From: a virus
Lineage: Duplodnaviria > Heunggongvirae > Uroviricota > Caudoviricetes
Length of the DNA stretch: 64,000 nucleotides
Reading direction: 5' to 3' (one strand)
Virus record (IMG/VR): IMGVR_UViG_3300037313_001331
Made by a program: the position numbers and the translations under genes
The notes under the pieces: model-generated
Told to the model about the DNA's origin: nothing
The model's database searches: none
What the model saw: the letters and a program-made list of their open reading frames with translations, nothing else
Shown: in pieces, positions 5,658 to 57,139 of the stretch
Numbering within the stretch: position 1 is the stretch's first letter
Layout: each line of letters starts with the position of its first letter

Positions 5658-5738
5658 CTCAGCAGTCGCTTATTGCTAACTCAGCGGGTGCTGACTACCT
5701 ATAATGGGAGTCTCACCCGCTTAGTATTTGGAGACTGG

Positions 5739-6032
5739 ATGTCCGAACTGCACCGATCAAGCTATGCGATTCGCAAGGACCTACAGCCAGGCCTGGACAA
5801 GGCCATCACGACCATGGGGCTGCAGTCCATCGGCGAGCTGCTCAGCATGATCGCTCGCGACCCAGCGCGTGCCGCCATTGCGCTCAAGCCCTTGGCTGAC
5901 GCGCTGCAGGCCGACAAGGACGAGGCCAAGCGCTTGAAGCAGGCCCAGGCCGACGTGAAGAAGCTCGCACGCACCGCGGACCCGGAGGCCGTCGCGAAGG
6001 CACTGGCCATCTTGAACAAGGCGCAGAAGTGA
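5739..6032 (+). CDS. hypothetical protein
   Basis: ATG after GGAGA; CCTATAATG box and degenerate class A boxes upstream. Confidence 0.5.
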   Translation: MSELHRSSYAIRKDLQPGLDKAITTMGLQSIGELLSMIARDPARAAIALKPLADALQADKDEAKRLKQAQADVKKLARTADPEAVAKALAILNKAQK

Positions 6033-6706
6033 CCGACAAGGTGCTCACCGGCGGGGTGAAGTCGACGAGTTTCAAGAAGCTGCGTGATTCGGAGCTGTTG
6101 GTTCCTGAGCACGTGGCGAAGGACCTGGAGCGCCGGGTGATGAAGAGCCTTGTCGCAAGTCGTGACGCCTTCAGTCGTGAGTACCTGGCGACTTGGGAGC
6201 CCGAAGAGAAGAAGGAAGAAATGACAGGGATCTCGGCAGCGCCCTCGTGGGCCATCACCTCGTTGAAGTGGCTCAAAGAAAACGGCTACGGCAGCTACGT
6301 CAGCTCGGGCATCACGCCGGACGTGCGCCTGCTGGGCGCGTTGCGCCGGATGTGCTGGATGAAGCTCGACCGCGTCAGCGGCGAGGATCGAGACCCCGAG
6401 GAATACAGCGCCCTGCTGACCGAGTACGTGAGTCGGTGGGATGCGGCACGGCACAAGGAAATGCGTGCATTCTTGGAGAGCGGAGGCTACTCGACCGAGA
6501 AGCGTCTTCATGGGGTCTCTCCGGCGGAGCCCGGCAAGATCACACTGGACGGCGCCGAAGGCCATGTTTGGGTGGTCGAAAACGGCCCAGACGGAAAGAT
6601 CCCCGCGCGTCCAGAGCCGGCAGCGCCTGCGTCGGAGATCGATGACCTGGCCGCCGCGGTGTTGGCTGAAGCAAAGGCGCGTGATTCGCGTCACGGGAGC
6701 TGGTGA
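6029..6706 (+). CDS. hypothetical protein
   Basis: GTG start overlapping upstream stop (GTGA). Confidence 0.55.
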   Translation: MTDKVLTGGVKSTSFKKLRDSELLVPEHVAKDLERRVMKSLVASRDAFSREYLATWEPEEKKEEMTGISAAPSWAITSLKWLKENGYGSYVSSGITPDVRLLGALRRMCWMKLDRVSGEDRDPEEYSALLTEYVSRWDAARHKEMRAFLESGGYSTEKRLHGVSPAEPGKITLDGAEGHVWVVENGPDGKIPARPEPAAPASEIDDLAAAVLAEAKARDSRHGSW

Positions 6707-7485
6707 TGGCGCTGTTCGACGCGGAACGCTTCATCGGCGGCATTCTCGGGAAGACCGGGTTCGGCGACCGCGGCGAACCCCATCCCTTCGAGGGCAGAGT
6801 GCGAGCACCGGACATGCGCACCGACGGCCCGACGCCGATCTATTCGTACAGCGCGACCCCGGCGGTAGAGGCGGCACTGGCCGCACAGCGCGAAGAAGAG
6901 AAGAAGCGCATCGAGGAATACCAGCGCCGGCGTGAAGAGCAAGAGAAGCAGCAGAGGTCGGCACGGGTGGCCCGCTCGGTCACGATGCGCGAGGTTTTGG
7001 CCTGCTTCCCGAACCAGCTGGCCGACGCGGTGAAGCGTGCCAAGCTCAGTGCTGGAGCTGGCAGCTGGGAATCCGAACGGCGGGAGAACCCGGACTACTT
7101 GGCGGAGCAGATCTTCCACGCCAACTGGCGGCGTGACACCTTCAAGTACCACCAGGCCTACGCGGAATGGGTCGAGCGCAAGGTCAAGACCTGGACAACC
7201 AAAGATGGTGCCGAACTGTTGGCGCACATGGATGCCGTCTACCTCGGCACGCGGCCCGAGACGGAGTTCAATGCGTCGGTGCTGGAAGAAAGTGCGCGAG
7301 AGCTGCGCGAGGCGCGGGCCAAAGAGGACGAGGAGAAGGAACGCCGCCGGGCGGAAGAGCAACGACTGCGCAAGCAAGCGGAGGTCGAGCGCGAAGAGCG
7401 GCGGATCGAGGCCGAGCAGGCTGCCTTTGCGCAGGAGATCGCCGAGCTGGACCGCCTGCGTCAACCCGGTCGAGGTGTGTGGTGA
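6703..7485 (+). CDS. hypothetical charged coiled-coil protein
   Basis: long ORF with E/R/K-rich segments; start overlaps upstream stop. Confidence 0.55.
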   Translation: MMALFDAERFIGGILGKTGFGDRGEPHPFEGRVRAPDMRTDGPTPIYSYSATPAVEAALAAQREEEKKRIEEYQRRREEQEKQQRSARVARSVTMREVLACFPNQLADAVKRAKLSAGAGSWESERRENPDYLAEQIFHANWRRDTFKYHQAYAEWVERKVKTWTTKDGAELLAHMDAVYLGTRPETEFNASVLEESARELREARAKEDEEKERRRAEEQRLRKQAEVEREERRIEAEQAAFAQEIAELDRLRQPGRGVW

Positions 7486-8123
7486 GCGGTGGCTGGCACG
7501 AGGGCGGCATCGTGTCGGATGACGTGGCCGACGGAATGGCCTATGCCTGGGGCGTCGGGAAAGACCCCTGGAGGCTCAAAGTCGCTGAGGGCGCGGGAGA
7601 GCCTTTCGTTCGCAGTCTTGGCGACAAGGTGGGTTCGGGAGAAGCGGTCGTTGACACCGAATACCGGGTGTTCACTTCGGGGCGACGCGCCGGCAAGACA
7701 GTGCGATGGTCGGCTGGTGCTCCAATTCACGTCACCGTGAAGGTCGATGAAGCCATCGCGGAAATGGATGCGGCGAAGAAGTCGCTGAAGGCTTTTGTCG
7801 ACGCAGAGCTGCGCAGACGAATGCTCGATGCTGTGAGAGAAACGGTCGGGGTCTTCGATGAATTGCCCTGGCCTGCGCGACGGGGCTATGGTGCCGGCGC
7901 GAAGCCGATGCTGGCGCGGGACTTGGCCACCACCGAGGTCGACATGCGCGGCATGATGGTGGTGAACTCAGACCGCAGGGAGTGGGCGGAGAGAAGCGCC
8001 ACAGACGATCTGAGCAGACGAGCATCACATCGGGCTGCGGCACGCGTGAAGCCCAGCCCGATGCTCGCGAAGTTACTCGACCGACACGAACTGATCAACG
8101 ACGACAAGCGGGGTACGTGGTGA
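7482..8123 (+). CDS. hypothetical protein
   Basis: GTG start overlapping upstream TGA; same frame as ORF-track 7167..8123. Confidence 0.5.
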   Translation: MSGGWHEGGIVSDDVADGMAYAWGVGKDPWRLKVAEGAGEPFVRSLGDKVGSGEAVVDTEYRVFTSGRRAGKTVRWSAGAPIHVTVKVDEAIAEMDAAKKSLKAFVDAELRRRMLDAVRETVGVFDELPWPARRGYGAGAKPMLARDLATTEVDMRGMMVVNSDRREWAERSATDDLSRRASHRAAARVKPSPMLAKLLDRHELINDDKRGTW

Positions 8124-8491
8124 GCGACCCCGCTCTTTTTTGGCACAACAACAGGGACACACGAACGATGAAGCTCACGGACATTCAGGAGGGCAAGAAC
8201 TATGGCAACGACAAAGACCCGCAATGGGCGGGGTACTACCGCACGGTCTGGATGATCGTCGACACGCCCAACAAGCCCGGCGGGAAGACCGTCCTGTGGA
8301 AGGTGGGCGGCGAAGGGGCGGGGCAGCCGCCGACACCAGGCCGGTTGAAGTCGACCCACCACGCGGGGCAGACCTCGCTGAAGAACTTCGCGGTCTGGGC
8401 GACGCATGAGGTGGTGGTGAAACAGCGGGCACCGGCCAAGAAGGTGGCGGCGAAGAAAGCCCCTGCGAAGAAGGCGGTGGCCAAGAAGTGA
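8120..8491 (+). CDS. protein with Lys/Ala-rich histone H1-like C-terminal tail
   Basis: C-terminus KKVAAKKAPAKKAVAKK; GTG start overlapping upstream stop (ATG at 8168 is an alternative). Confidence 0.5.
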   Translation: MSDPALFWHNNRDTRTMKLTDIQEGKNYGNDKDPQWAGYYRTVWMIVDTPNKPGGKTVLWKVGGEGAGQPPTPGRLKSTHHAGQTSLKNFAVWATHEVVVKQRAPAKKVAAKKAPAKKAVAKK

Positions 8492-8609
8492 GAACTATGC
8501 CCGCCAAAGACTGAGGGCCGCGTGCGGGCATCAGCGGAAGTGGTTCAATCAGCGGATGCACACGGTGGACACGTGTGCCCGTGTATTTGCAGTTCGAGGG
8601 GAAGTAGCG

Positions 8610-8888
8610 ATGAAGAAGCCGAGCCTGTATGCGACGGCACTGGAGTGGGTGGAGTCAGATGCCTTCACTGCCGAGCAGCTGGAGCGCATCGCGGTGGCCG
8701 CGGTGAAGGGCCTCAGCAGGCGGGGTGCAAAGACCGCGCTCGCGCGGGCTGTGCACGACGTGAGCGCTGAGCTGGGGCGAACCATGGGTGAGCACCTGCA
8801 GGAGTTCCATGACAAGCGGGCACTGGGCATGAGCAACCCTCACGAGTGGGCGGAAGACCCCAAGATCAAGCGGATCAACAAGCCCTGA
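8610..8888 (+). CDS. hypothetical protein
   Basis: ATG after GAGGGGAAG. Confidence 0.5.
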   Translation: MKKPSLYATALEWVESDAFTAEQLERIAVAAVKGLSRRGAKTALARAVHDVSAELGRTMGEHLQEFHDKRALGMSNPHEWAEDPKIKRINKP

Positions 8889-9111
8889 TCTCGGCCCTAT
8901 AAGGTCGAGTGCCTGACACAAGGCCGCCAGGATTTTCGGGGTGGGTGCGCGGTGCCGGGTCGCTCCGGGAGTGGAGCTTCGTCTACGTATAAGGTCTTCG
9001 TGCCAGGCTGGACAAAAACGGCGGCAAGGGCCACCGAAGCCCGAGACACCCCATAGGGGGTGCAAGGTCTAGGGTTCTCCCCTAGACAGGGGCGGGGTCG
9101 TGTGCGTCAGG

Positions 9112-9307
9112 TCAGACCAGACCCCAGTCCGCAGGGATGCCCCAATCGAACGACTCGCATGCATCGGGGTGCTCATCGGTGCGTGACCGGTTGAACCGTT
9201 CAGCCCCCAGGGCAAGCCCCTCGCATGCATCGTGCTCGCTGCGGGTGTGCTCATGGGCAAGGGTGGGCGTGATACGGTGGGTCTGCTGGTGGTGTTGAGT
9301 GCGCATG
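9112..9307 (-). CDS. small His-rich protein (65 aa)
   Basis: ATG after GAGGT; class A box and 16-bp CACGTG palindrome upstream. Confidence 0.4.
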
Positions 9308-9334
9308 GTGGTACCTCGGCGGTGCGAATGGTGG

Positions 9335-9346
9335 GTCAGTGCTGAC
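9335..9346. promoter_or_regulatory. class A box
   Basis: GTCAGTGCTGAC next to palindrome GGGCACACGTGTGCCC (9357-9372). Confidence 0.5.
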
Positions 9347-9385
9347 TGATCGAACAGGGCACACGTGTGCCCTGCCCTGGGTGGG

Positions 9386-10051
9386 TTACTCGCTCTTTTC
9401 GCCCCCGATCTCTTCGAGTTGACCCATGGTTGCAGACTCGACCAGGGAGACAAACGCAGTGACAAGGGGGTGTTCCCGGTTCAACTGCACCATGCGATCA
9501 TGGGTCTTGTGCTTCGCAGCAGTCGCACCCAGGGCATCGCAGAACCCGTTGTCACCCCACGTGCGAGACTTCTGCGTGGAGACCGTGTTAGCCCCCACCC
9601 GTGCGAACATCTTCGCAAGACGGGCCCGAGAAACGCCCTTGGTGTCACCGGTAGCACCATCGACACGGGCATACCCTGCGATGAGCACGTGCAGGGAGTC
9701 ATAGCTCAGCGCCCCCTCGGGGGACAGGTGCAGCGCGTACAGCCCGCATGCGGTGGTCGCGTCGATGTTCTTGTAATTCTTTTCGGTGATCGCGTTCACC
9801 ATCTGGATCGCCCGCTTCACCTGCTTTTGGGGAAGGGAAAAGAGGGTCTTGAAGTCGATCCCGTAATCTTTCATCGCGACGAAGGTCGATTCGACGAAAG
9901 CGAACTTGCCCTTGTCTCTGAGGACCGCTTCGATGTCTTTGGACGCTGCTGCGCGGTGGGCGGTGAGCACTGCGCGGGCTTCAGCGTAGGTGTCCCCGTT
10001 CTTGTTGGGACGGGCTGCACGCGGGGCGCGGGGGGTGGTGGTCTTGCTCAT
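9386..10051 (-). CDS. hypothetical protein
   Basis: 221-aa ORF; class A box about 24 nt upstream of ATG. Confidence 0.55.
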   Translation of the reverse strand: MSKTTTPRAPRAARPNKNGDTYAEARAVLTAHRAAASKDIEAVLRDKGKFAFVESTFVAMKDYGIDFKTLFSLPQKQVKRAIQMVNAITEKNYKNIDATTACGLYALHLSPEGALSYDSLHVLIAGYARVDGATGDTKGVSRARLAKMFARVGANTVSTQKSRTWGDNGFCDALGATAAKHKTHDRMVQLNREHPLVTAFVSLVESATMGQLEEIGGEKSE

Positions 10052-10084
10052 GGTGTGTACCTTTCAAAGTGTGTGTCAGTAGTG

Positions 10085-10096
10085 ACTGAGTGTCCC
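10085..10096. promoter_or_regulatory. class A box
   Basis: GTCAGTAGTGAC with a TGTGTG flank; 24 nt before ATG 10051. Confidence 0.5.
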
Positions 10097-10770
10097 GGTT
10101 AAATGTGTGATGCACCGGGGACAGGGAGATAGTCTCACGTTAATACCTCTGTCGTCAACAATGTTATTAAAGTAGAAACCCTTAGTCACTGCCCCTTCCC
10201 TGCGCTCGGAGGTCGGCTGACAGAAGGCGCGAGGCGGGCGCACGCGACTACCGGAGTGCGCTGGGCTGGCGAAGGAGGGACAACCCGAGGATGGGGTTTC
10301 CAGGGAGGAGCAGGCACTCACGTGGGTAGGCGCTAAGGAGAGTGCCCGCTGACATCCGACCCCGGGCTCGGCGCGTCCTAGGCCCTCATCAAGGAGCGCA
10401 GCCGTACTCCTAGGCTCCCGTCATGGAAGCCCGCCGTACATCGACGGGCTCGGCACCAGGCGCTCAGCGCTGGCCCTGGGTGCGCTGCAGGGTGTCCCGG
10501 CGACGGTCCGGGGCTGCAGCGATGGCGCGGCGCAGCTGCCTGCCCTGGCGGCGCTTGTTGCGCTCGGCGAGGTCTCGCTCCAGCTCGCGCTCCAGGGTCT
10601 GGTAGAACCGCTCGAATTCACTGTTCATGGAGCGTTCCTCAGTGAATCCAGCACACGGGGCGGTGTTCCGCGATGCACTGGACCACCTGGTCCTCCATGA
10701 CGGTGTCCCACACCACGCGACCAGGCGTGAGCGAGTACAGGTAGGCACGCAGCAGCATGACGGCCGCCGG

Positions 10771-10929
10771 TCATGCGAAGCGTGGAGCACGGCCCAGCAG
10801 GATCTGGTGCGCTTCCTCGAACGTGGCCTGGCGGTTGCGGAGGTACCCGGCAGCGGTGCGTGTGCCCAGGCTCTTCTGGATGGCCAGCGCCTTCTTGATG
10901 ATCTTGGTGAGTTGGCTTTGCAGTCCCAT
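10771..10929 (-). CDS. small ORF (50 aa), possibly the remnant of a disrupted gene
   Basis: manually translated; class B box then AGGGGAA then ATG; two further small ORFs follow in other frames. Confidence 0.3.
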   Translation of the reverse strand: MGLQSQLTKIIKKALAIQKSLGTRTAAGYLRNRQATFEEAHQILLGRAPRFA

Positions 10930-10951
10930 GGCGTTCCCCTGTGTGGTGGGT

Positions 10952-10990
10952 GTTGCGATGGGAGTGACTTTCTCGACCGGGCGTCGGCTA
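10952..10990 (-). promoter_or_regulatory. class B box copy 1
   Basis: GTTGCGATGGGAGTGACT plus GC hairpin CGACCGGGCGTCG; on the minus strand it precedes ATG 10929. Confidence 0.5.
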
Positions 10991-11502: not shown

Positions 11503-11504
11503 GG

Positions 11505-13272: not shown

Positions 13273-13273
13273 G

Positions 13274-14171: not shown

Positions 14172-14184
14172 GTGCTTTCCCCGT

Positions 14185-14225: not shown

Positions 14226-14234
14226 GTTGGCTGG

Positions 14235-15640: not shown

Positions 15641-15949
15641 GCGCTTCGCCGCGTCTTCAGCCAAGGCGCGCTTCATTGCTTCGGCACCCTGGTTGTAGGC
15701 GTCCTGCTCAGCCTTGGAGCGCTTGGCAGGCGCCTTGGAGGTGGGCTTGTCTTGGGGCTGGCAGGCCTGACCGCCAATCACGATGGGGCGAATGCCGCCG
15801 TTGGTCTGGGCCTGGGTGTCGAGCCAGGCATTAAGGGACTTCATGCACGCCTGCTGCGTGCGGTGGGGCGGATCGCTGATCTGCCGTTCGTGTTTCCCAC
15901 CTTCTGCGTCCACCCATGCGATGGTGGCTGCCAGCACAAATTCGATCAT
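15617..15949 (-). CDS. hypothetical protein
   Basis: 110-aa ORF; stop codon lies inside a class B box. Confidence 0.5.
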   Translation of the reverse strand: MIEFVLAATIAWVDAEGGKHERQISDPPHRTQQACMKSLNAWLDTQAQTNGGIRPIVIGGQACQPQDKPTSKAPAKRSKAEQDAYNQGAEAMKRALAEDAAKRAASAPGR

Positions 15950-16006
15950 AAAAGAGGACCTCCGTAACCCATTGTAGGGATCAGAGGCCCTCCACTCGCC
16001 CCTTGC

Positions 16007-22435: not shown

Positions 22436-22447
22436 GTCAGTGCTGAC
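22436..22447. promoter_or_regulatory. class A box
   Basis: GTCAGTGCTGAC; 17 nt before ATG 22419. Confidence 0.5.
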
Positions 22448-22900
22448 TTACCACGATCCGCGAGAAGCGACCCTGTGCCCGTCTTCGTAGACGGTGCGCC
22501 CCTCGGGTGGGTGTGAAACCAAATGATCGCCCTGTGAGTCAGGACTGAGTGATTCCATTGTAGAGACCGCCGAAGGCGTTGCCCGGTCGGCGTACAGGCT
22601 GGGCGTGCGCGAATTGGCGATCTCCACCAGCTGGCGCCAGTACCGCTTCATCTTGTTCCGGGTGATCGCCAGCTGCTTCGGGGTCAGCGACTCGTACCGG
22701 AGGTAGCCGCGCACCATGTCCGTGAGGAACGGGGCATCGAACCGGGAGAAGCCGACGCCATTCACCTCCCGGGTGTGGTGGCCGGCCTGTTCGGCGGCCG
22801 TCTGGCGGTTGTAGATGGCGAGCAGGGCCTTGTACACGGCCTGGTCGCTTCGCTCCAGGAGTGCCTGGATGCTCTCCTTCGTGTGAGTGGCAGCGGTCAC
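22448..22900 (-). CDS. hypothetical protein
   Basis: GTG after GAAGGG, 15 nt after a class B box; the ORF-track TTG start lies inside the box. Confidence 0.45.
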   Translation of the reverse strand: MTAATHTKESIQALLERSDQAVYKALLAIYNRQTAAEQAGHHTREVNGVGFSRFDAPFLTDMVRGYLRYESLTPKQLAITRNKMKRYWRQLVEIANSRTPSLYADRATPSAVSTMESLSPDSQGDHLVSHPPEGRTVYEDGHRVASRGSW

Positions 22901-24737: not shown

Positions 24738-25964
24738 ATGCCCCGTCACACCCTCGTCGCCACCACTTTGAAGGCGAAGATCGAAGCCGCACTGGCGGCT
24801 GCCAAGGACTCCCAGAAGGCCCAGAAGCTGGGCGACGGCGACGGGCTGATGCTGGTGGCCCGCCCCAGCGGCGATGCCTCGTGGGTGCTGCGGTACCGCC
24901 AGGATGGTGCACGAAAGGACCTGACCCTGGGCCGGTGGCCAACGCTGACCCTGAAGATGGCGCGGGACGAAGCGGACAAGGCCCGCAAGTCTGCCGCCAC
25001 CGGCGTCGACCCGGTCGAGGCGAAGAAGGCGGCCCGCAAAGCGCGCCCCGGCGTGGCATCGGGCCCGGACACGGTCAGGCGGCTCTTCGAGGACTGGCGG
25101 GCCAAGGAAGAGGTCAGCGCCGTCTACGCCGGCAACATCGAGGCGGCGTTCCTGAAGGACGTGCTGCCTGTCATCGGCGCCGTGCCACCCGAGGACGTGA
25201 CCCGCGAGCAGATCCTGAAAATCCTGCGGACCATCGAAGGCCGGGGCGCCGTCGACATGGTCCGCCGGGTTCGCATGTGGATGCGGCAGATGTTCGAGTT
25301 CGGCATCGAGGACGAGAGCCGCCCTGCCCTGCGCATGTCGCCGGTGCCGATGGGGACGCTGAAGTCCTTCAAGAAGTCACGCAAGAAGCGGCACTACGCG
25401 GCCATCAAGGACGCCAAGGAGGTGCCGGCGCTGATGAAGGCGATCAAGGGCATCACGGACAACTTTGTCATCCGGAACGCCTTCCTGCTGTCGGCGCACA
25501 CGTTCCAGCGGCCGACCGAGATTCGCGAGGCGACCTGGGACGAGTTCGACCTGGACGCAGGCATCTGGCGCATCCCCGCGGAGCGCATGAAGCTGGCCGG
25601 CGAGCACTGGGTGCCGCTGTCGCGCCAGGTGGTGGAGATCCTGCGCGTGCACAAGGGCGTGGTGGGAGATCAGGGCTGGCTGTTCCCGGGCCGGAAGTAC
25701 GGCCAGTCCATCTCCGAGGGCACGCTCACCGGCCGCCTGAACAACATGGGGTTCGAGGGCCGTCACACGCCTCACGGGTTCCGCGCGATGGCGCGGACCA
25801 TCGGTGAAGAGGTCCTGCACATCGACGCCAAGTACCTGGAGAAGCAGCTTTCACACGAGGTCGATGTGAGCGGGCTGCGGGGCGCCTACAACCGGGCGGA
25901 GTACTGGGACCAGCGGGTCAAGATGATGCAGAAGTGGTCGGACTGGCTGGACGCTCAGACATGA
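24738..25964 (+). CDS. int: tyrosine integrase (P4-like, N-terminal arm-binding domain)
   Basis: N-terminus GDGDGLMLVARPSGDASWVLRYR; C-terminal HGFRAMARTIG...RAEYWDQR catalytic region. Confidence 0.85.
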   Translation: MPRHTLVATTLKAKIEAALAAAKDSQKAQKLGDGDGLMLVARPSGDASWVLRYRQDGARKDLTLGRWPTLTLKMARDEADKARKSAATGVDPVEAKKAARKARPGVASGPDTVRRLFEDWRAKEEVSAVYAGNIEAAFLKDVLPVIGAVPPEDVTREQILKILRTIEGRGAVDMVRRVRMWMRQMFEFGIEDESRPALRMSPVPMGTLKSFKKSRKKRHYAAIKDAKEVPALMKAIKGITDNFVIRNAFLLSAHTFQRPTEIREATWDEFDLDAGIWRIPAERMKLAGEHWVPLSRQVVEILRVHKGVVGDQGWLFPGRKYGQSISEGTLTGRLNNMGFEGRHTPHGFRAMARTIGEEVLHIDAKYLEKQLSHEVDVSGLRGAYNRAEYWDQRVKMMQKWSDWLDAQT

Positions 25965-26121
25965 CCCGCGCCTGGTAGGCGTCGATCTCGATGTCCACCC
26001 ACCGGCTGGACGTGCCCTGCTTCACCGGGCGGGGAAACTTGCCTTCTTGGATCAGCTGGTAGATGGCGGTGCGGCCCAGGCCCACACGCTTCTGGACAGC
26101 CGGTAGTGGAAGGAACTCCAT
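25918..26121 (-). CDS. alpA: AlpA-family excisionase / transcriptional regulator
   Basis: LPLPAVQKRVGLGRTAIYQLIQEGKFPRPVK HTH; overlaps the int 3' end convergently. Confidence 0.75.
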   Translation of the reverse strand: MEFLPLPAVQKRVGLGRTAIYQLIQEGKFPRPVKQGTSSRWVDIEIDAYQARVMSERPASPTTSASS

Positions 26122-26134: not shown

Positions 26135-26160
26135 GTCAGTACTGAGTCATTATAGGGAGC
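26135..26160 (-). promoter_or_regulatory. class A box plus conserved -10-like box
   Basis: minus strand GGCTCCCTATAATGACTCAGTACTGACTGAG upstream of alpA. Confidence 0.5.
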
Positions 26161-29010: not shown

Positions 29011-29124
29011 TCGCCCTACAATGCGTTGTGCCCTGTCGAAGGGCATGCCGAAAGGCTCCTCCCTCCATTCCTCCCATTACCTTTCGGCTAGGGGTCGGCC
29101 ACTTGTGAGCCGACCCCATTTTTC
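29011..29124 (+). ncRNA. candidate small RNA (promoter, structured CU-rich body, intrinsic terminator)
   Basis: CGCCCTACAATG -10-like box; stems TGCCCT/AGGGCA and GCCGAAAGG/CCTTTCGGC around CTCCTCCCTCCATTCCTCCC; GGGGTCGGC...GCCGACCCC then ATTTTTC. Confidence 0.4.
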
Positions 29125-33967: not shown

Positions 33968-34351
33968 TCAGTTGGTGTTCGTGTTCAGCGCGCCCGGCAG
34001 CGGAGAGTTCCGGGGCTTGAGGGCGTGCTTTGCGCGGATCTCGGGCACCTTGGTCCAGACGCGGTTCAGCTCAAGCTGGCCGCACTTCTCCATGTCGAGC
34101 CCATGCGCGCTGCACAGTCCGGCCAGCGTGACCATCACGCCGCCCGCCTCCTGGTAGCGCTCGCCCACGGGCCGGCTGAAGACGTAGTCGACAAGCATCA
34201 GCACCTCCTCGCGGGTGGTGCCGGCCGCCTGCGCCAGTTCCAGCGCCTCTTCCGTGAAGCGGTGGTTGCGCTCCCGCTGGCTGGTCGCATCGGCCTCTCC
34301 AAAGCAGGCATGCATCCAACGGGTGACTTCTTGTTGAAATTGGCTCATCAC
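33968..34351 (-). CDS. MazG-like nucleotide pyrophosphohydrolase
   Basis: all-alpha pattern with EEALELAQA / EEVLMLVDY acidic motifs. Confidence 0.45.
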   Translation of the reverse strand: MMSQFQQEVTRWMHACFGEADATSQRERNHRFTEEALELAQAAGTTREEVLMLVDYVFSRPVGERYQEAGGVMVTLAGLCSAHGLDMEKCGQLELNRVWTKVPEIRAKHALKPRNSPLPGALNTNTN

Positions 34352-34770
34352 AGCTCCACGTAGCCGCTCTTCTTGAGCGTGTTGAAAAGGGCCTTCAGCT
34401 CGGTCTCGCGCTCGCCAACGTCGACGCTGCGCGTGGTGGGCTTCCCCACCTGTTCACCCGACAGCGCGTCGCGACGCTGAATCGCGTATCCCGGGCGATC
34501 CGGGAACCACGCGAAGGTCACGGTCCCGCCCTTGCCCAGGAAGTGCTTCTTGAGCGGTTCGGGCGGGCAGCTGTCTGCCGTCATCCCCACCAGGGCCAGC
34601 ACCGACTCATCGATCAGCCCGCTGGTCACCTGCCACAGCGAGCGACTCACCAGGGCCAACTCGCGCTTGGTCATGCGGTTGCGCTCGACGCGGTGAACCA
34701 GCACTTCCAGCTGCTCGACCGTCTTCCGGGCAAGCTCTTCGCTGATGGTTGGGGGTGCTTCAAACGTCAT
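34348..34770 (-). CDS. hypothetical protein
   Basis: ATG directly after class A box plus ACACACAA; no SD. Confidence 0.5.
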   Translation of the reverse strand: MTFEAPPTISEELARKTVEQLEVLVHRVERNRMTKRELALVSRSLWQVTSGLIDESVLALVGMTADSCPPEPLKKHFLGKGGTVTFAWFPDRPGYAIQRRDALSGEQVGKPTTRSVDVGERETELKALFNTLKKSGYVEL

Positions 34771-34776: not shown

Positions 34777-34788
34777 GTCACTACTGAC
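34777..34788. promoter_or_regulatory. class A box
   Basis: minus strand GTCAGTAGTGACACACAA directly followed by ATG 34770. Confidence 0.5.
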
Positions 34789-34807: not shown

Positions 34808-34836
34808 TAGGCGGGCACGGAGGCCCGCCCCTATGG
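34808..34836 (-). terminator. intrinsic terminator between two class A boxes
   Basis: minus strand GGCGGGC-ctccgt-GCCCGCC followed by TATTTTTGT. Confidence 0.5.
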
Positions 34837-34846: not shown

Positions 34847-34880
34847 GTCATCACTGACTGTCGAACTCATTATAGGGAGC
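34847..34880 (-). promoter_or_regulatory. conserved -10-like box plus class A box
   Basis: minus strand GCTCCCTATAATGAGTTCGACAGTCAGTGATGAC. Confidence 0.5.
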
Positions 34881-34896: not shown

Positions 34897-35541
34897 TCAC
34901 TGGAGCGTGACAGCTCCTGCGGCCTTTGCCGCCTCCATCAACGCAAGGTGCTCCGAGATCGAGCAATGTGCGGCATGGATCACGGCGCTCACCCGGTCCG
35001 ACAGGTCCAGGTAGGCACGCGGCAGGCGGTAGTGCCGGCATTCCATGCGCTCATCCATCACCAGGCCGATGGCCAGCGCGTTGTAGTGCTCCATGAACGC
35101 CGGGCAGGCGGGCGCCTTGCCCTCCTCTTCCACCAGCGGGATGCCCGGCTGCACCACCACGATGGTTGAGAACCACCGGTTGGCCGCCTGTATGCAGCGC
35201 CCGACGTAGTCCACCACCAGCTGGGCGACCTCGGGGCTGCCCGCGAGCGTGGATCGCTGCACGTCGGCCAGGAGGTACGCGGCCCCGTCCAGGGGCGTGC
35301 GGTCCGAGATGAAGAGCCGGGAGACCTTCGTCGCCGCGGCGAACTGCTTCTCGAATGACTCCAGCAGCGTGTTCTGGACCGCCAGGCGCTCCTCGATGGG
35401 GTACTCCTTCCTGGGGTCCATGCCGCACGCGGCGTAGACGCCCCTGGCGTCGGTCTGCAGGAACGGAATGTCACAGCGCTGCGCGAAAGCCTTCGCCAGC
35501 GTCGACTTGCCCACGCGCTGGGCGCCAAGCAGGCCGATCAT
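34897..35541 (-). CDS. P-loop kinase, putative (d)NMP kinase
   Basis: Walker A GAQRVGKST; GGAGGG SD. Confidence 0.55.
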   Translation of the reverse strand: MIGLLGAQRVGKSTLAKAFAQRCDIPFLQTDARGVYAACGMDPRKEYPIEERLAVQNTLLESFEKQFAAATKVSRLFISDRTPLDGAAYLLADVQRSTLAGSPEVAQLVVDYVGRCIQAANRWFSTIVVVQPGIPLVEEEGKAPACPAFMEHYNALAIGLVMDERMECRHYRLPRAYLDLSDRVSAVIHAAHCSISEHLALMEAAKAAGAVTLQ

Positions 35542-36095: not shown

Positions 36096-36133
36096 TGGTC
36101 CTCTCCTGTGAGTTGTTTTGGGGTTCCCTCTTC

Positions 36134-36175
36134 ACTGTAGGGAGCGCGGGAACCCCTTATAGGGAGCCGAAATTC
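36134..36175 (-). promoter_or_regulatory. two tandem conserved -10-like boxes
   Basis: minus strand CGGCTCCCTATAAGGGG and GCGCTCCCTACAGTGAAG upstream of dut. Confidence 0.4.
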
Positions 36176-38429: not shown

Positions 38430-38507
38430 TGGGGACGGCGGCAGGACTCGAACCTGCGACCAAGTGCCTGTTCGGCACGATTGCTCTACCGCTGAGCTAC
38501 GCCGTCC
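38430..38507 (-). tRNA. tRNA-like gene, His-type acceptor (G-1:C73, encoded CCA) but non-canonical anticodon arm
   Basis: canonical D arm and T arm, 7-bp acceptor plus extra 5' G; anticodon region GTGCC-GAACA-GGCAC has a 5-nt loop or G33. Confidence 0.55.
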
Positions 38508-40238: not shown

Positions 40239-40274
40239 CTCAGCACTGACTTAGTCGTTTGCATTATAGGGAGC
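40239..40274 (-). promoter_or_regulatory. conserved -10-like box plus class A box variant
   Basis: minus strand GGGGCTCCCTATAATGC-N10-GTCAGTGCTGAG. Confidence 0.45.
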
Positions 40275-42634: not shown

Positions 42635-42901
42635 CTACCACGAACCACAGCGAACATCACCGTCTTTCACTGTAGAGATCGCGATGGGTTCGGACTTGAC
42701 AGGCTCCGGCGGCGTGGGCTGGACGATAGGGCCGAGACGCATCGTGTTGTGAATGCCTTGCGTGTGCAGCCTGTTCAACTGCTCCATGACACGCCTGGGA
42801 TCACCGATAGGCGTTGCCTCGATCACGATCTGCACCGAGTCGCGATCCATTGCGTGCCGGAAGTCGATGCGACTGACGTACAGGTCGATACCCTGGCTCA
42901 T
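42635..42901 (-). CDS. hypothetical protein
   Basis: internal ATG (MSQGIDLY...); its 3' end carries a degenerate class B copy. Confidence 0.45.
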   Translation of the reverse strand: MSQGIDLYVSRIDFRHAMDRDSVQIVIEATPIGDPRRVMEQLNRLHTQGIHNTMRLGPIVQPTPPEPVKSEPIAISTVKDGDVRCGSW

Positions 42902-50815: not shown

Positions 50816-50825
50816 TGCAACCCTT

Positions 50826-50851
50826 CCCAAAAATTGCCCCGCTTGCGGGGC
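50826..50851 (-). terminator. intrinsic terminator
   Basis: minus strand CCCCGC-aa-GCGGGG followed by CAATTTTTGGG, between a TATAAT box and the sbcD-like SD. Confidence 0.5.
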
Positions 50852-50859
50852 TTCAATCA

Positions 50860-50885
50860 ATTATAGAGAGTTAGTCAGTGATGAC
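50860..50885 (-). promoter_or_regulatory. class A box plus TATAAT
   Basis: minus strand GTCATCACTGACTAACTCTCTATAAT; the box spans the SleB-like stop codon. Confidence 0.45.
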
Positions 50886-51637: not shown

Positions 51638-52110
51638 GGTGAGACTTTGCTGGGTGCTCTTCGGCTCGTCCCGGGGATTCGCATGCGCTCGGTGAGGGAC
51701 TCCTCACGCATGTCCTCGGGCGGGCGCTTGACGGCGAAGAGCCGTTCGGGGATGTGCCAGTGCATGCCGCCCGTGAAGGGGTGCTTGCCATGGCTCTTGT
51801 AGGTGACACCCTTGTCCTTGCCGGCTTGGCCAAAGGCGTCCATGTGGATCAGCATGCGGGTGCCGTCTTCGATCAGCATGCCCACGTGCGTCACCCCGTA
51901 GGCCCGAATGGCGGAGATAGTCTCGGCGGGGATCGCCCAGGACTCGTCTGCTCGGATGTACTCGTCGGTGCGCCGCGGCATCCAGTAGATGTTCAGGCGC
52001 AGGCCCTTGAAGCTGTGGATCTCGCCGGCCTTGCGGCGGTGCCGGCGCACCATGCGAACGGTGTGGGTGCCGGCCCGCTTCGGTTCACCGACCTTCGTGG
52101 ACATGGACAT
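51634..52110 (-). CDS. hypothetical protein
   Basis: 158-aa ORF. Confidence 0.45.
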   Translation of the reverse strand: MSMSTKVGEPKRAGTHTVRMVRRHRRKAGEIHSFKGLRLNIYWMPRRTDEYIRADESWAIPAETISAIRAYGVTHVGMLIEDGTRMLIHMDAFGQAGKDKGVTYKSHGKHPFTGGMHWHIPERLFAVKRPPEDMREESLTERMRIPGTSRRAPSKVSP

Positions 52111-52444
52111 GCACCTTCAGGCCGCGCAGTCGAGCTGCGTCGATCATGTGCTTCGTGCCCCGGCTGCGGCCATCCCAGAACGCCACCAGCCCGTCGGCGT
52201 AGTCGGCCATCTGACAGTTGCGCACCAGGCCGGCCCGCTTGCCGGCGTACCCATTCCAATCGGGAATGAACTGGCGAATCGGCAGGTTGTTCCGGTTTGC
52301 CCAGGTCTCGCCCAGCTGGTCGACGCCGCGGGCGCCGCCGCTGACGACCTCCGTGATTTTCCAGTCCCAGAGCAGCGGCTCCATCACCTGCTGGATGAGC
52401 TTGTAGTCCGTGATCCCCCGACTGCCGGCGATGATGACCTTCAT
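52085..52444 (-). CDS. SLOG/DUF2493-like protein
   Basis: MKVIIAGSRGITDY...VVSGGARGVDQLGE...LVAFWDGRSRGTKHMI pattern. Confidence 0.5.
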   Translation of the reverse strand: MKVIIAGSRGITDYKLIQQVMEPLLWDWKITEVVSGGARGVDQLGETWANRNNLPIRQFIPDWNGYAGKRAGLVRNCQMADYADGLVAFWDGRSRGTKHMIDAARLRGLKVHVHVHEGR

Positions 52445-52662
52445 GCGTCAACCTCGATTCGGTCGAGGCAGTACTCCACCTGGTCGACGAAGGTGAAGTT
52501 CATCCCGCCAGTGCTTGTACGCCCACACCGCATGCACGCTCTGAGCCCCCGCATGAAGTACGGGTTGTAGCGGGCTCGAAGGAACGCCATCATCTCCGGC
52601 GTGTAGTACCGCGCCCGCATCTTGCGGCGCCAGGTCTCACGCTTGCCGAAACGCTTGGGCAT
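52441..52662 (-). CDS. hypothetical protein
   Basis: 73-aa ORF with CMRCGR. Confidence 0.4.
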   Translation of the reverse strand: MPKRFGKRETWRRKMRARYYTPEMMAFLRARYNPYFMRGLRACMRCGRTSTGGMNFTFVDQVEYCLDRIEVDA

Positions 52663-52663
52663 G

Positions 52664-52933
52664 TCAGTGGTAGTCCGAACAGCGGTGTGGAAGAAATGCC
52701 ATCGGCACGAATTCGACTCGACAGCCTTCAGGTAGCAGCCGCTCGACGATGGATCGATTGGAGTTGCACTGAGGCGAACCGGTGCTACTCGGCCTGAGCT
52801 TGAAGAACAGCGCCTCGTTCTCCGGAGTGATGGCCCAGTACCTTTCGCCCATGCAAATGCGACCGGACTTCGGGGTCGTGATGTCCGAGAGGGGCACCCG
52901 CACGAATCGCGGGTCAGACAACGACAGCGGCAT
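52664..52933 (-). CDS. hypothetical protein
   Basis: 89-aa ORF. Confidence 0.4.
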   Translation of the reverse strand: MPLSLSDPRFVRVPLSDITTPKSGRICMGERYWAITPENEALFFKLRPSSTGSPQCNSNRSIVERLLPEGCRVEFVPMAFLPHRCSDYH

Positions 52934-52934
52934 G

Positions 52935-53222
52935 TCAGGCGTCCTCTGAGATCTCGTGCAGGCCGCCGCGGGCGGTCAGGCCCCAGCTGCGCTTGGGCAC
53001 ACGGTCACCGCCAGGGCCTTGCCCGTTCAGGAGAGCGACGATTGCGGCCTTGTCGGTCGGGATCTCCAGCTCGTCGATGAAGGTCTCGCCGTAGTAGGGC
53101 TTGGGCGAGAGCTTTGCCTCGGTGTGGGCGCCGCCCTCGCCCGTGAGGTTGGCGCAGTAGCTGGCCGGGTAGAGGTTGTCGCCGCAGGCGGCTTCAGGCC
53201 GGGTCACACGAAACACTCGCAT
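52935..53222 (-). CDS. hypothetical protein
   Basis: 95-aa ORF. Confidence 0.4.
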   Translation of the reverse strand: MRVFRVTRPEAACGDNLYPASYCANLTGEGGAHTEAKLSPKPYYGETFIDELEIPTDKAAIVALLNGQGPGGDRVPKRSWGLTARGGLHEISEDA

Positions 53223-53560
53223 CAGGAATCTCCTTCAGGTAGATGACACTCACCATCGAGTGAGGGTGAACTCTCCCGGGTGGGTATCGGCGCGTCATCG
53301 ACGCAATCAAAAGTGCCGCGCGATCCTCGGCAGGGTGCTCGCGCCAGTTGTGGGCAAGGGCCGAGTGATGCTCTGCCATGTCGGTCAGCTCACCGGTCAC
53401 CACCCGTTCAACGACGGCGCGCTTCAGCAGCTTCTTGCTACGTGAATCGACCAGCTCCACCTGTGCGCCCTCGGGGCACTTCTCGACCCACGAGAGGCCC
53501 AGGCGGAACGTGTTGAACTGGCCCGTGAGGCCGCGGCGGGGATATGAGAAAGCGATCTGC
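53194..53560 (-). CDS. hypothetical protein
   Basis: internal ATG directly after CTCTACAGTGAAAGC. Confidence 0.45.
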
Positions 53561-53600
53561 ATGCTTTCACTGTAGAGACGACACGCAGATCGCTCGGCGC

Positions 53601-53903
53601 TCAGAAGCTGCCGCTGTCCACCTTCGACTTGACGAAGTCGAGGATGCGCGTGGCCGAGTCCTTGCGGCTGTAGATAGAAGCGGCGCCCGGGATCGTGCTG
53701 GGCTCCACCTGGCACAGGGCCAGGCGCTTGAGCACCTGTAGGATGATGCCGATGGCCTGCACTTCGCAGTCGTCACTCTCCACCTGGAACGACATGCACA
53801 GCGGATCAATTGCTGGGCGGAAGAACTGGTGGTGGCTATCCTCCAGCGGAGGATCGAAGCGCACGGTCCCGTCGGGGTTCACGATGACTTCGTGGCGACT
53901 CAT
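53601..53903 (-). CDS. hypothetical protein
   Basis: 100-aa ORF. Confidence 0.45.
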   Translation of the reverse strand: MSRHEVIVNPDGTVRFDPPLEDSHHQFFRPAIDPLCMSFQVESDDCEVQAIGIILQVLKRLALCQVEPSTIPGAASIYSRKDSATRILDFVKSKVDSGSF

Positions 53904-54940
53904 GCTTCGGACCCCACCAGCAGCTCGTGCAGCTCACCCACGCGGCCTTCAGCGTTGATCTTGTCCACCAGCTGGCCGGCGAAGTAGGTCTTGCCGTCGA
54001 AGGTGATGCGCCCGCTCTTGTCCTTGTCCAGCTTCTTCGCCGCGATCAGCTCTTCGATGTAGCCGCGGGTGAAGTCGAACGACGCGAGGCCCTTGTCGTC
54101 ATAGGCCAGGCGCAGCTCCACTTCCTGGAACGGCATGCAGATCTTGTTCTTCTTCGTGTTCAGGCAAATCACTGCCGCGTCCAGCCCGCCGTCCTTCTTG
54201 TCCTTCTCCAGCTTGCGACCGGTGAAGATGCGGGTGGTGGCATAGAACTCCATGGCCGCGCCGCCCGGGGTTGTGGTCGGGTCGCCGTACACGACGCCAG
54301 GCTTCGTGCGGATCTGGTTGAGATAGATGCCCGTGACATCGAACTCACCCACCGCCTGGTTCACGGCCTTGAGCGTCGTCGATGAGACGCGAGCCAGGGC
54401 AGTGGTGTCGTTCATGGTGTACTCGTCGATCTCGCGGCGCTTCCCGTCCTTGTCGTAGAGCACGGACTTCGGAATGGCCGATGCAATGGAGTCGCACACG
54501 TAGACGATGGGTGCATCCGGGGCGATCAGCTTCCGCTTGCGGATCGTCTCTGCCACCTTGAGCGCAGCGGTATTGCCCTCTTCCCAGGTTTCCGACCGCT
54601 TGTAGACGAAGCGAGGGAAGGTGGTATCCAGCCCCAGCAGCTGGGCGAATGCCGCATTGAAGGTCCGCTCCCAGTCGATGAACACCGCGACGCCACCGGC
54701 CTTCTGCGCCGCGATCATCGCGAGGGTGGCCAGCAGGGTCTTGCCCGAGGCGGACGGGCCGGCGATCTCGATGAGTCGGCCGCCCGGCAGACCGCGGCCA
54801 TAGAAGCCGCTCAGGATCTTGTTCAGGGGCGCGTAGCCCATGTCGAGCCACAGTGAAGGCTCGGTCTCTTCATCGTTGGCTCCCACCGCTCCCAGTAGGG
54901 CGGCGCCCAGGGCGGCGAGGTCAAGTGATTTTGCGGACAT
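53900..54940 (-). CDS. RecA-family recombinase
   Basis: Walker A GPSASGKT, Walker B-like VYVCDS and RecA-core layout. Confidence 0.85.
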   Translation of the reverse strand: MSAKSLDLAALGAALLGAVGANDEETEPSLWLDMGYAPLNKILSGFYGRGLPGGRLIEIAGPSASGKTLLATLAMIAAQKAGGVAVFIDWERTFNAAFAQLLGLDTTFPRFVYKRSETWEEGNTAALKVAETIRKRKLIAPDAPIVYVCDSIASAIPKSVLYDKDGKRREIDEYTMNDTTALARVSSTTLKAVNQAVGEFDVTGIYLNQIRTKPGVVYGDPTTTPGGAAMEFYATTRIFTGRKLEKDKKDGGLDAAVICLNTKKNKICMPFQEVELRLAYDDKGLASFDFTRGYIEELIAAKKLDKDKSGRITFDGKTYFAGQLVDKINAEGRVGELHELLVGSEA

Positions 54941-55009
54941 GCTTTTCTCTTTCTTGTAGTGGTGGGCTCAGTGCTGGCCCGGTTGTGGCTCAGGCGGACG
55001 CCTGGCCGG

Positions 55010-55972
55010 TCAAGCGGCCATCGCCATTGCTGGCGCCGGCACGTCGATTCCGAAGTTCTGCAGGAAGGCCCGGCGGTCGCGCAGAATCGAGGCGAAGTTC
55101 AGCCGCTCGCACAGGTGCAGGAACTTCTCGGGGTCGGGCTTCTTGTGGACGATCTGGACCTCGCCCGGCAGCGGCTTGCGCGCCTGCGCCAGGTCCAGCA
55201 GCTTGAAGTTGCGTCGCACCAGCGCCCTACCCTCCTCGCTGGCCAGAAACTGCTCTGGGTGAAGAGACTTGGCGGTCTTCGACTTGCGCGTGGCCGGCGT
55301 GTAGGCGCCCGAGTCGACGGCGTCCCAGAAGGCCTGAACCGTCTTCCACTTGGCGATGAACTGGTAGCACGCGGCACTCTTCTCGCCCATGCCATCGACA
55401 CCCGGGACGTTGTCGTTCGCGTCGCCGTTGATGGCCTTGCCCTGGGCAAACTCCTCGGGGCTGAAGAAGCCGGTGAACTCCAGGAAGTTCTCCAGCGAGA
55501 CCTTGCGGTCACGAATCGGATCGAACCAGGTGGTGGTCGCGTTGACCATGCGCAGCCAGTCGCGGTCGCCCGTCACCATGACCGTGCGCGTCCCGGGGCG
55601 GGCTGCGACGGTGTGCCAGCCCAGGTCGTCTGCTTCGAGCAACGGGGAGCGCAGCTGACGCACCCCGAGGTACTCCATGAACTTCTCGATGAAGGGCGTC
55701 TGGCGCTTGAAGGCATCCTTCGATGCCTGCTCCTCTGGCGTCTTCGCCACCCGGTTGCCCTTGTACTCGGGGTACAGCTCGTAGCGGAACTCGGCACGAC
55801 CGTCCCACAGGATCAGCGGTGTGCCGTTCGGGTAGGTCTGCATCAGCTTCCGCATCGAGTGCAGGAAGCCGAAGATGGCTTGCACTTCCATCGTGCCCAC
55901 GGTCAGGGTGTTGGCCTGGTCGTTCGCATGGGCGATGGAGTTGCCGTCAACGGCGAGAAGGAGTTTCGTCAT
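55010..55972 (-). CDS. 5'-3' exonuclease / flap endonuclease (FEN, Pol I 5'-exo-like)
   Basis: LLAVDGNSIA, TGDRD, GVDGMGEKSA motifs. Confidence 0.85.
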   Translation of the reverse strand: MTKLLLAVDGNSIAHANDQANTLTVGTMEVQAIFGFLHSMRKLMQTYPNGTPLILWDGRAEFRYELYPEYKGNRVAKTPEEQASKDAFKRQTPFIEKFMEYLGVRQLRSPLLEADDLGWHTVAARPGTRTVMVTGDRDWLRMVNATTTWFDPIRDRKVSLENFLEFTGFFSPEEFAQGKAINGDANDNVPGVDGMGEKSAACYQFIAKWKTVQAFWDAVDSGAYTPATRKSKTAKSLHPEQFLASEEGRALVRRNFKLLDLAQARKPLPGEVQIVHKKPDPEKFLHLCERLNFASILRDRRAFLQNFGIDVPAPAMAMAA

Positions 55973-56117
55973 CGCGTTTCAAATGGCAAATGTGAGCGCC
56001 AGGTCAGACCGGACGGCTTGATGTCATCGATGCCGGCCATGCATAGTGCTGGCGCTCAGGTTTGCCTTCGTCACGAGAAAAATGGGGCGGCGCGATGCCG
56101 CCCCGTGGGGTTGTCGA

Positions 56118-57062
56118 TCAGCCGAGTTGGCTCAGCAGTTCGTCCAGGTCCGGGTCACCGGTGGGCTCGCCCGCCGTCGTCGCGGCTGCGGGAGCCGCCG
56201 CGGGCTTGGCCGCTGCCTTCGCGGGCAGATCCGGCACGTCGGTGATCTCCTCGTCCAGCTTCTTGGCAGCTGCAGCGGGCTTCGCGGCCGGCTTGCGCGG
56301 TGCAGCGACGGCGTAGTCGTCGTCGACCAGCTCGGCGGCACCAGCTGCGGCCTCGGGCAGGCCCGAGGGGCGAGCACCGGCTGCGGCCGGAGCTGCCAGC
56401 AGACCGGCAACGGAACGCACCGAGTTCAGGGCGCGCTGTTGTTGCTCGACCGACTCCTGCTGCACGTAGGCGTCCAGGTCGTGGAGCTTGGTGAGCACGT
56501 CCGGCGACACGGCGCTCGCCTTCGCGGCCAGCATGGTCTGGTACTTGGTGTTCTTGCCCGTGCCTTCGCGGGTGATGATGATGTCCGAACCCGGATTGCC
56601 GTCGCCCATGATGATGGACTCGCCGGCTTCTTCGTACTCGGTGGCGATGCCCAGCACCTGCTCGAACACCGTGGGCGCCAGCTCCAGGATCTGGACCTCG
56701 CCGGGGGTCGGGCCATCCAGCTGCACCGCGTTCAACAGCACGCGGCCGGCGGACTTGGCTTCCTTCAGCAGCTCCATCGTGGCGTCGTCGGTCGCGCCCT
56801 TGATGGCGCTCTGCACCGCGTCGCACACGGGGCAGGGACGACCGAAGGTCTTGTCCGTGCAGACGTAGATCGCGGCGATGGTGTTGTCGGCGTTCTTGAC
56901 GAAGTGCTGACCGAAGTCGTGCCAGAACTGCTGGCCGGCGCCACGCCAGGACTGGAGGATGCGCCAGCGACTGCGACCTGCGGCCGGCTTGACGGTCTTG
57001 CGACGCTTGCCGGAGGCCAGGTCTTGCTTCTTGTTCTTCAGGAGTTCGAGCAATGCGGACAT
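56118..57062 (-). CDS. putative ssDNA-binding protein
   Basis: position in the replication block, Cys cluster CTDKTFGRPCPVCD, Ala/Pro-rich linker and acidic tail DPDLDELLSQLG; inference only. Confidence 0.4.
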   Translation of the reverse strand: MSALLELLKNKKQDLASGKRRKTVKPAAGRSRWRILQSWRGAGQQFWHDFGQHFVKNADNTIAAIYVCTDKTFGRPCPVCDAVQSAIKGATDDATMELLKEAKSAGRVLLNAVQLDGPTPGEVQILELAPTVFEQVLGIATEYEEAGESIIMGDGNPGSDIIITREGTGKNTKYQTMLAAKASAVSPDVLTKLHDLDAYVQQESVEQQQRALNSVRSVAGLLAAPAAAGARPSGLPEAAAGAAELVDDDYAVAAPRKPAAKPAAAAKKLDEEITDVPDLPAKAAAKPAAAPAAATTAGEPTGDPDLDELLSQLG

Positions 57063-57112
57063 GTAGTTTCCCTTGTTGGTTTGGTTGGGTGAAGAGCGGT
57101 TTGACCCGCCCT

Positions 57113-57139
57113 CACATTATAGTGTGTGTCAGTGGTGAC
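57113..57139 (-). promoter_or_regulatory. class A box plus TATAAT
   Basis: minus strand GTCACCACTGACACACACTATAATGTGAGG upstream of the SSB-like gene. Confidence 0.5.

Follow-up and report, generated by a model that had tools for sequence, protein, structure and literature searches.

The 64,000-nt window analyzed here (IMG/VR record IMGVR_UViG_3300037313_001331; Caudoviricetes), which is 64 kb out of the ~110 kb genome of an uncultured siphophage and has a GC content of 64%, carries dispersed copies of a short box, GCTCCCTATAATG. The best explanation we can offer, held with somewhat better than even confidence, is that the box serves as the -10 element of about a dozen gene-directed promoters that do not depend on a -35 element, that these are read by a bacterial-type, sigma-dependent RNA polymerase (RNAP), most probably the host core enzyme with the host primary sigma factor, and that they are gated through a neighboring symmetric dyad. 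This is not a new kind of transcription system.

Three exact copies of the box, reading CATTATAGGGAGC on the plus strand, lie at 26148, 34868 and 40262, just where the first-pass annotation had placed them, and none appeared in 100 shuffles of the window; about ten variants accompany them. When as many as three mismatches are allowed, the count rises to 15, compared with 5.2 +/- 2.3 expected. The 40-nt flanks of the three copies agree at 3-14 of 40 positions, as random sequence would, and since identity is thus limited to the 13-mer, the copies are not fragments of a longer repeat. The related copies reported earlier are also present, namely CACTGTAGGGAGC (36133), CCTTATAGGGAGC (36155), CCTATAATGGGAG (5698), GCCCTATAAGG (about 8894) and CGCCCTACAATG, the last at 29012 rather than at 29013, one position off its earlier coordinate. 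Further members, beyond that list, are found at 15970 (GATCCCTACAATG), 22556 (GGTCTCTACAATG), 42668 (GATCTCTACAGTG) and 53568 (CGTCTCTACAGTG).

Placement and orientation of the boxes are those of promoters. Both strands of the window together hold 15 TAYART hexamers, 12 or 13 of which are intergenic, face the downstream gene and are preceded by C. Twelve of the 13 best sites are intergenic, with intergenic DNA making up 17% of the window (P = 7e-9), and 12 of the 13 are co-oriented with the downstream gene, which bears out the earlier proposal of promoter-like -10 boxes read in gene direction. Across the 109.8 kb of genome that could be reconstructed (see below), the motif CT[CG][CTA]C-TAYART occurs on the gene strand in 8 of 8 cases and never on the other strand. 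Immediately 5' of the hexamer, the window sites read GCTCCC (five times), GATCCC, GGTCTC, TCGCCC, GATCTC, ACTCTC, CGTCTC, ACACAC and CTACC, and the sites at 42668, 53568 and 36133, together with one copy outside the window, form a subfamily CTCyC-TACAGT-GAAAG.

The same grammar is found in relatives. In a clade set consisting of the phage and 18 related loci from IMG/VR and from metagenome-assembled genomes (MAGs), at roughly 50-70% protein identity, C-13 is present in 61 of 79 sites (P = 7e-18), T-16 in 47 (P = 2e-14) and C-17 in 40 (P = 1e-4), and the predicted +1 is a purine at 61 of the 79. The hexamer, a near-perfect TAYAAT, keeps positions 1, 2 and 6 and varies at 3 and 5, which is the pattern of -10 elements. 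At sites with a downstream dyad, the extension has GCTC(C/A)C as its consensus throughout the clade; conservation beyond the hexamer, as first noted for GCTCCC in the window, hence extends through the clade at promoters that have no upstream operator. In these sites, positions -40 to -28 carry no information, and the best TTGACA match at a spacer of 16-18 nt scores on average 2.66 of 6, against 2.54 +/- 0.09 in shuffles. A scan of 24-43 kb for standard -35/-10 promoters returned none. TG at -15/-14 occurs at just 2 of 81 sites, where CC, GA and CA predominate. As in extended -10 promoters, a strong -10 hexamer stands without a functional -35; being without -35 and without TG, however, the sites are neither standard sigma-70 nor standard extended -10 promoters. 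We propose that the extension (C-17, T-16, C-13) would take the place of both missing elements. A heat-shock sigma-32-type -10 (CCCCATNT / CYTATNT), which the run of C had brought to mind, was rejected, as there is no CTTGAA-like -35 and the hexamer fits poorly.

Read on its other strand, the box had been likened to a T7 promoter. The 11/13 identity between CATTATAGGGAGC and the T7 core CACTATAGGGAGA is arithmetically correct, the core CAyTRTAGGGAG does resemble positions -7 to +5 of T7/T3/SP6 promoters, and at 26148 and 34868 a few more upstream bases match the familiar T7 consensus. That the complementary strand is a promoter of a T7-like single-subunit RNAP is nonetheless close to negligible in our estimate. 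At 12 of 13 sites the transcripts from such promoters would be antisense to the genes, and the random flanks of the exact copies leave nothing conserved at T7 positions -17 to -8, whereas a promoter of this type spans about 20 bp (-17 to +6). The polymerase gene that the first-pass annotation had suggested looking for in the rest of the genome did not turn up: no RNA_pol (PF00940) hit was obtained in the window, and the open reading frames (ORFs) of at least 500 amino acids in the 109.8 kb, all of which were assigned or searched, include none, with a small junction of the genome unsequenced. Furthermore, a -10-like TATAGT appears whenever a T7-type core is reverse-complemented, and a likeness of this kind is hence to be expected; it is a mirror-image coincidence.

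Next to the boxes stands a companion element, called class A in the first-pass annotation, which we can define as the dyad T(c/a)A-GTCA-N4-TGAC-T(g/a)A. The pairing of the two elements holds, with the dyad either upstream or downstream of the hexamer. In 353 kb of clade sequence there are 94 instances of GTCA-N4-TGAC, as opposed to 4-22 for other spacings, and 32 exact copies are found in the 109.8-kb genome. Upstream dyad cores end 0-10 nt before the hexamer, and downstream cores start 8-18 nt after its first base; the corresponding centers fall at -31 to -18.5, with a sharp mode at exact abutment with the hexamer, or at +1.5 to +6.5. Both ranges are repressor-type positions, in which a bound protein would exclude RNAP, and we propose that a phage DNA-binding dimer on GTCA-N4-TGAC, over either the spacer or the start site, would gate initiation. 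Abutting dyads read CTGAC-TATAAT, by which C-17, T-16 and C-13 are preserved, and we read this as dual coding, the operator half-site being positioned such that the promoter extension stays satisfied. With the common layout, TATAAT-CA-GTCA, the left half-site contains the predicted start, and the transcript would lack the full hairpin; the dyad hence most likely acts on DNA rather than on RNA, and for the same reason an RNA hairpin or a nut-like site was considered less likely.

Many copies of one site overlap promoter cores, as in the dispersed repressor-operator networks of temperate phages and phage-plasmids, of which the P1 C1 operators and the stoperators of mycobacteriophage L5 are examples. 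The likeness comprises dozens of short-site copies throughout the genome, their overlap with promoters, and a phage-plasmid-related lineage with an integrase. Unlike those networks, the sites here form a strict symmetric dyad, GTCA-N4-TGAC, and also precede late structural genes, and the binding protein is a predicted one. Outside the window, the dyad accompanies the portal, capsid and tail genes, where it stands behind weaker hexamers (GCGAAT, TATAAA, TAGAAT, CATAAT) without CTCCC. The designation of these promoters as early was in this respect too narrow.

The best candidate for the dyad-binding protein is likely an XRE-like helix-turn-helix (HTH) protein of 166 amino acids, encoded just past the right end of the window (locus L091, 4172-4672, minus strand). 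Its gene is transcribed divergently from a region with three GTCA-N4-TGAC dyads and two divergent TATAAT boxes. The protein has 31% identity (E = 1e-15) to an annotated XRE-family protein of Rhizobium phage RHph_X66; searches of Pfam and of solved structures gave no match. The locus resembles an immunity switch. RHph_X66 (L124; MW960030.1 45437-88874), a cultured relative, has its genes in the same order, with a sigma gene at the corresponding place, and carries its own version of the grammar, in which the dyad TAAGTAA-N4-TTACTTA follows gCGC-TATAAa, with 16 sites in 43 kb at no more than one mismatch. This dyad differs from that of the clade by one base per half-site. Given the homology of the XRE-like proteins and a shared grammar with one base changed per half-site, regulator and operator appear to have co-evolved across the group. 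In Pseudomonas phage nickie the dyad family is absent and the sigma gene is not detectable. At two places in nickie (L125 5591 and 10106), TACAAT lies in 7-nt loops of GC-rich hairpins of 6-7 bp upstream of genes.

Terminator-like hairpins with T-runs are frequent near the boxes, ending no more than 60 nt past the box in 19 of 82 cases compared with 2.5 +/- 1.2 at random positions. Four hairpins hold the box itself in their apical part (-26 to -38 kcal/mol, z -3 to -5), namely 53550-53595 with the box in its loop (minus strand; -27 kcal/mol, z = -4.4), 15953-15993 (minus strand; -26.3 kcal/mol, z = -3.0), and those at about 1000-1045 of locus L089 and 275-320 of locus L090 (-34 and -38 kcal/mol, z about -5). 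At 15970, L089 and L090 an ATG directly follows the T-run, and at 15970 the right arm of the hairpin contains GGAGG, a Shine-Dalgarno sequence. We propose that boxes in or just before intrinsic terminators would let incoming transcripts stop and a new transcript start at the box. At the nested sites, a transcript that arrives from upstream would end there, its ribosome-binding site held in a base-paired state, while a transcript begun 7 nt past the loop hexamer would carry the right arm only and leave the ribosome-binding site exposed. A gene behind such a terminator needs a promoter exactly at the box, which lends independent support to the promoter interpretation.

The hairpins also bear on the idea that the conserved sequence is no promoter and acts in RNA, for instance as a site of processing or, in the loop of a hairpin between cistrons, as a target for a protein. 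Several copies do lie in hairpin loops, three of them with CCC/GGG closing a UACAAU hexaloop, and hairpins are 8-fold enriched directly after the box; in addition, an AU-rich single-stranded patch in a GC-rich transcript, here of 64% GC, would be a natural endonuclease target. We regard this explanation as improbable, because most copies, including all three exact ones, lie outside hairpins, because the hexamer varies in the way -10 elements do, and because the placement relative to the DNA dyad is tight, up to exact abutment with shared bases. The requirement for a promoter precisely at the box, where genes lie behind a terminator, likewise argues against it.

If the boxes are promoters, the question arises which polymerase reads them. 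The window encodes a divergent sigma-70-family factor (61909..62592, minus strand), in which regions 2 and 4 are recognized but a clear region 3 is not. It matches PHROG 351 (5e-5), nine of its nine homologues match Pfam Sigma70_r2 (best 2.4e-8), and when the homologues are combined into a profile, solved chains of RpoS and SigA are matched across both region 2 and region 4 (1.5e-5). Almost all relatives in which the promoter grammar recurs also carry the gene, in syntenic position. By pairwise comparison and profile search only, the protein is homologous to the annotated sigma factor of RHph_X66; a tblastn search for the gene in cultured phages gave no match. It is conceivable, if rather unlikely, that this factor reads the boxes on the host core enzyme, with CTCCC-TAYAAT as its own extended -10 code. 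Its presence and conservation would speak for such a role, and a specificity different from that of the host would easily explain both the non-canonical extension and the missing -35. Yet the factor has kept its region-4 HTH although the promoters contain no -35 information, and the hexamer is that of a textbook primary sigma whereas W433 and W434 (E. coli numbering, region 2.3/2.4) are, as judged by eye, not conserved in the phage protein. Promoters dedicated to a phage sigma factor would, moreover, be absent from genes expressed before it, which is not what we find: a CTCCC-TATAAT box (L091 4923) heads the CobT-CobS-sigma operon itself, and a box of the same type (L091 4783) heads the divergent XRE-like gene, where it is needed before any phage protein is made. 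The box must hence first be read without the phage sigma factor.

The C before the hexamer agrees with the rhizobial sigma-70 consensus CTTGAC-N17-CTATAT (PMC2873474), although this consensus may not be that of the host. The C is a feature shared with alphaproteobacterial primary-sigma promoters and is consistent with the nearest cultured relatives infecting Rhizobium; unlike the rhizobial consensus, the phage sites have no CTTGAC-like -35 and show T-16 and C-17 in addition. From the textbook hexamer, the C preceding it, the retention of a region-4 HTH in a phage factor whose supposed promoters have no -35, and the box heading the sigma operon, we infer that the host primary sigma factor is the favored reader. 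The related grammar of RHph_X66 is counted on the same side. A more far-reaching possibility is a novel promoter code, in which a -35-less -10 with C-17/T-16/C-13 would be recognized by the phage sigma factor that lacks region 3, or else by one of the host through unrecognised contacts, and in which promoters nested in terminator loops would insulate cassettes from upstream transcription and unmask ribosome-binding sites; this we consider doubtful.

Several observations weigh against promoters read by the host primary sigma factor. As discussed, the phage's own factor could read the boxes. At 50859 (hairpin 50836-50851) and at 34868, a complete hairpin with T-run lies just past the predicted start and might terminate the new transcript. 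The box at 29011 faces against its neighboring genes. Finally, the gene calls come from a heuristic of our own based on codon and GC3 scores, on which the intergenic and orientation counts rest.

The distances between boxes and start codons suit promoters, as is seen from the individual sites. On the plus strand, an ACTACC-TATAAT-G box (5694..5706) lies 33 nt ahead of the ATG of gene 5739-6032 (plus strand), with a predicted leader of roughly 20 nt. The other plus-strand box, TCGCCC-TACAAT-G at 29011..29023, is the sole copy opposing its neighboring genes and may drive a short antisense or non-coding RNA. A small hairpin (GCCCTgtcgaAGGGC) follows this box (29011-29100, plus strand).

The remaining boxes are on the minus strand. 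All three exact GCTCCC-TATAAT-G boxes are accompanied by dyads or dyad-like sequence. The one at 26148..26160 is followed by the dyad-like CTCAGTACTGAC (26135-26146), and its predicted leader is roughly 20 nt. The one at 34868..34880 begins 16 nt past the stop of gene 34897-35541 and is followed by a putative GTCA-N4-TGAC operator (34847..34858), by an intrinsic-terminator-like hairpin with T-run (34809..34830, minus strand), which lies between the box and gene 34348-34770, and by a second dyad (34777-34788). The one at 40262..40274 lies 12 nt past the stop of the ribonucleotide reductase gene and has a one-mismatch dyad at 40239-40250; in the related locus L001 (11693), the orthologous site reads GCGCTCCC-TATAAT and the dyad is retained. 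Upstream of the ribonucleotide reductase gene (start 42554) stands a GATCTC-TACAGT-GAAAG box (42668..42680), and upstream of the dUTPase gene stands a tandem pair, with GCTCCC-TACAGT-G (36133..36145) proximal and GCTCCC-TATAAG-G (36155..36167) distal.

Dyads also accompany the GGTCTC-TACAAT-G box at 22556..22568, where a one-mismatch dyad follows (22538-22549), a second one lies at 22436-22447 and the end of the upstream ORF is uncertain; the ACTCTC-TATAAT-T box at 50859..50871, with an upstream dyad (50874-50885) and a hairpin with T-run after it; and the ACACAC-TATAAT-G box at 57115..57127, which is abutted by an upstream dyad (57128-57139), lies ahead of the gp32-like SSB gene (56118-57062) and has orthologs in about 10 relatives. 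As to the two boxes nested in hairpins, the T-run behind GATCCC-TACAAT-G (15970..15982) is followed by the ATG at 15949, with a predicted leader of 14 nt that includes GGAGG. In CGTCTC-TACAGT-GAAAGC-ATG (53568..53580), the ATG (53562) begins exactly 7 nt after the hexamer, and the mRNA may be leaderless.

The genome context was obtained by joining the window to a second IMG/VR contig, IMGVR_UViG_3300037467_001949, which overlaps the right end of the window by 4,776 nt at 100% identity. The joined sequence has 109,779 nt (109.8 kb), and its ends do not overlap, which leaves a small junction uncovered. Pfam and PHROG searches with the ORFs of the window identify it as the replication and nucleotide-metabolism region of the phage, with nearly all genes on the minus strand from about 9.4 kb on. 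It encodes Pol III alpha fused to UDG, SbcCD, RecA, a gp32-like SSB and a 5'-3' exonuclease, as well as class II ribonucleotide reductase, ThyX and dUTPase; further genes encode a UvsW-like helicase, ParB-like proteins and a CobS-like ATPase. An Acb2/Tad1-type hairpin domain, as in sponges acting against CBASS and Thoeris, is encoded at 2327-2551 on the minus strand (Pfam 6.7e-17). The extension beyond the window holds terminase, portal, scaffold, capsid, tail, tape-measure, J-like and collagen-fibre genes and an M15 endolysin, together with PhoH, DnaB, primase, ligase, CobT and an Hfq-like gene, whose Hfq-domain match (2e-7) lies at L109 5732-6100.

A P4-type tyrosine integrase gene (24738-25964, plus strand) adjoins an AlpA-like gene (25918-26121, minus strand; Phage_AlpA 6e-7), which lies behind the exact box at 26148, and a tRNA-Val gene (anticodon AAC) is present at 38430-38506 on the minus strand. 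These features suggest that the phage is temperate and that the same operators govern its integration. The tRNA was the only match in an Rfam scan of the window. A non-coding gap of ~500 nt (8889-9385), which separates convergent gene blocks and matches no Rfam family, contains TATAAGGTC twice, near 8897 and 8989, as well as the dyad GTCAGTGCTGAC at 9335.

Judged from its sequence, the phage is a distant relative of the Rhizobium RHEph10-type and SSU5-type phages. The nearest cultured phages, which have only about 40% identity in Pol III alpha, are Rhizobium RHEph10/RHph types, Stenotrophomonas phages, Pseudomonas phage nickie and SSU5-type Salmonella, Escherichia and Klebsiella phages; RHEph10 and SSU5 have been tied to phage-plasmids in a published survey (PMC7969092). 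Megablast of 9 kb against the phage collection gave a single 72% patch, in the ribonucleotide reductase gene, as its sole match, and a Pol III alpha scan of the genome collection returned mostly host DnaE genes. As to the host, a 4.7-kb contig binned to a Hyphomicrobiaceae MAG gives a weak hint.

A second repeated motif, CCATCGCAAC(AC) (class B), is found on the minus strand at 10952, 14185, 15602, 17606, 22916 and 63819, with a CCGGGGCG-like block 12-20 nt upstream and start codons 15-35 nt further on. The motif may mark a further class of promoters, perhaps one used by the phage sigma factor, or belong to a structured leader. We did not find it in the related loci examined and leave it unexplained as a second promoter class.

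In the literature searched, these motifs were not found described. Among known classes, extended -10 promoters come closest, although one of their defining features, the TG, is missing. In Thermus phage P23-45, middle and late genes have promoters of this class and are thereby spared by a phage-derived inhibitor that targets sigma region 4 (PMC3950348). The boxes share with this TGn-TATAAT class the near-consensus -10, the lack of a discernible -35, a conserved element directly upstream and the use by a phage, but have C-17/T-16/C-13 (typically CTCCC) in place of TG at -15/-14. Unlike in P23-45, no gp39- or AsiA-like factor was identified in this phage, and recognition of the box is a prediction.

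In summary, our analysis points to an arrangement of -10 boxes, dyads and terminators in this phage, and it raises the concrete question of what the conserved phage sigma factor reads. If our interpretation is true, a -35-independent promoter can use an upstream extension other than the classical TG, and the promoter in a terminator loop would be a compact design reusable in synthetic biology. For the phages themselves, it would provide a readable grammar of promoters, operators and terminators for temperate siphophages with genomes of ~110 kb, a widespread but uncultured lineage with ties to the RHEph10 and SSU5 phage-plasmid groups.

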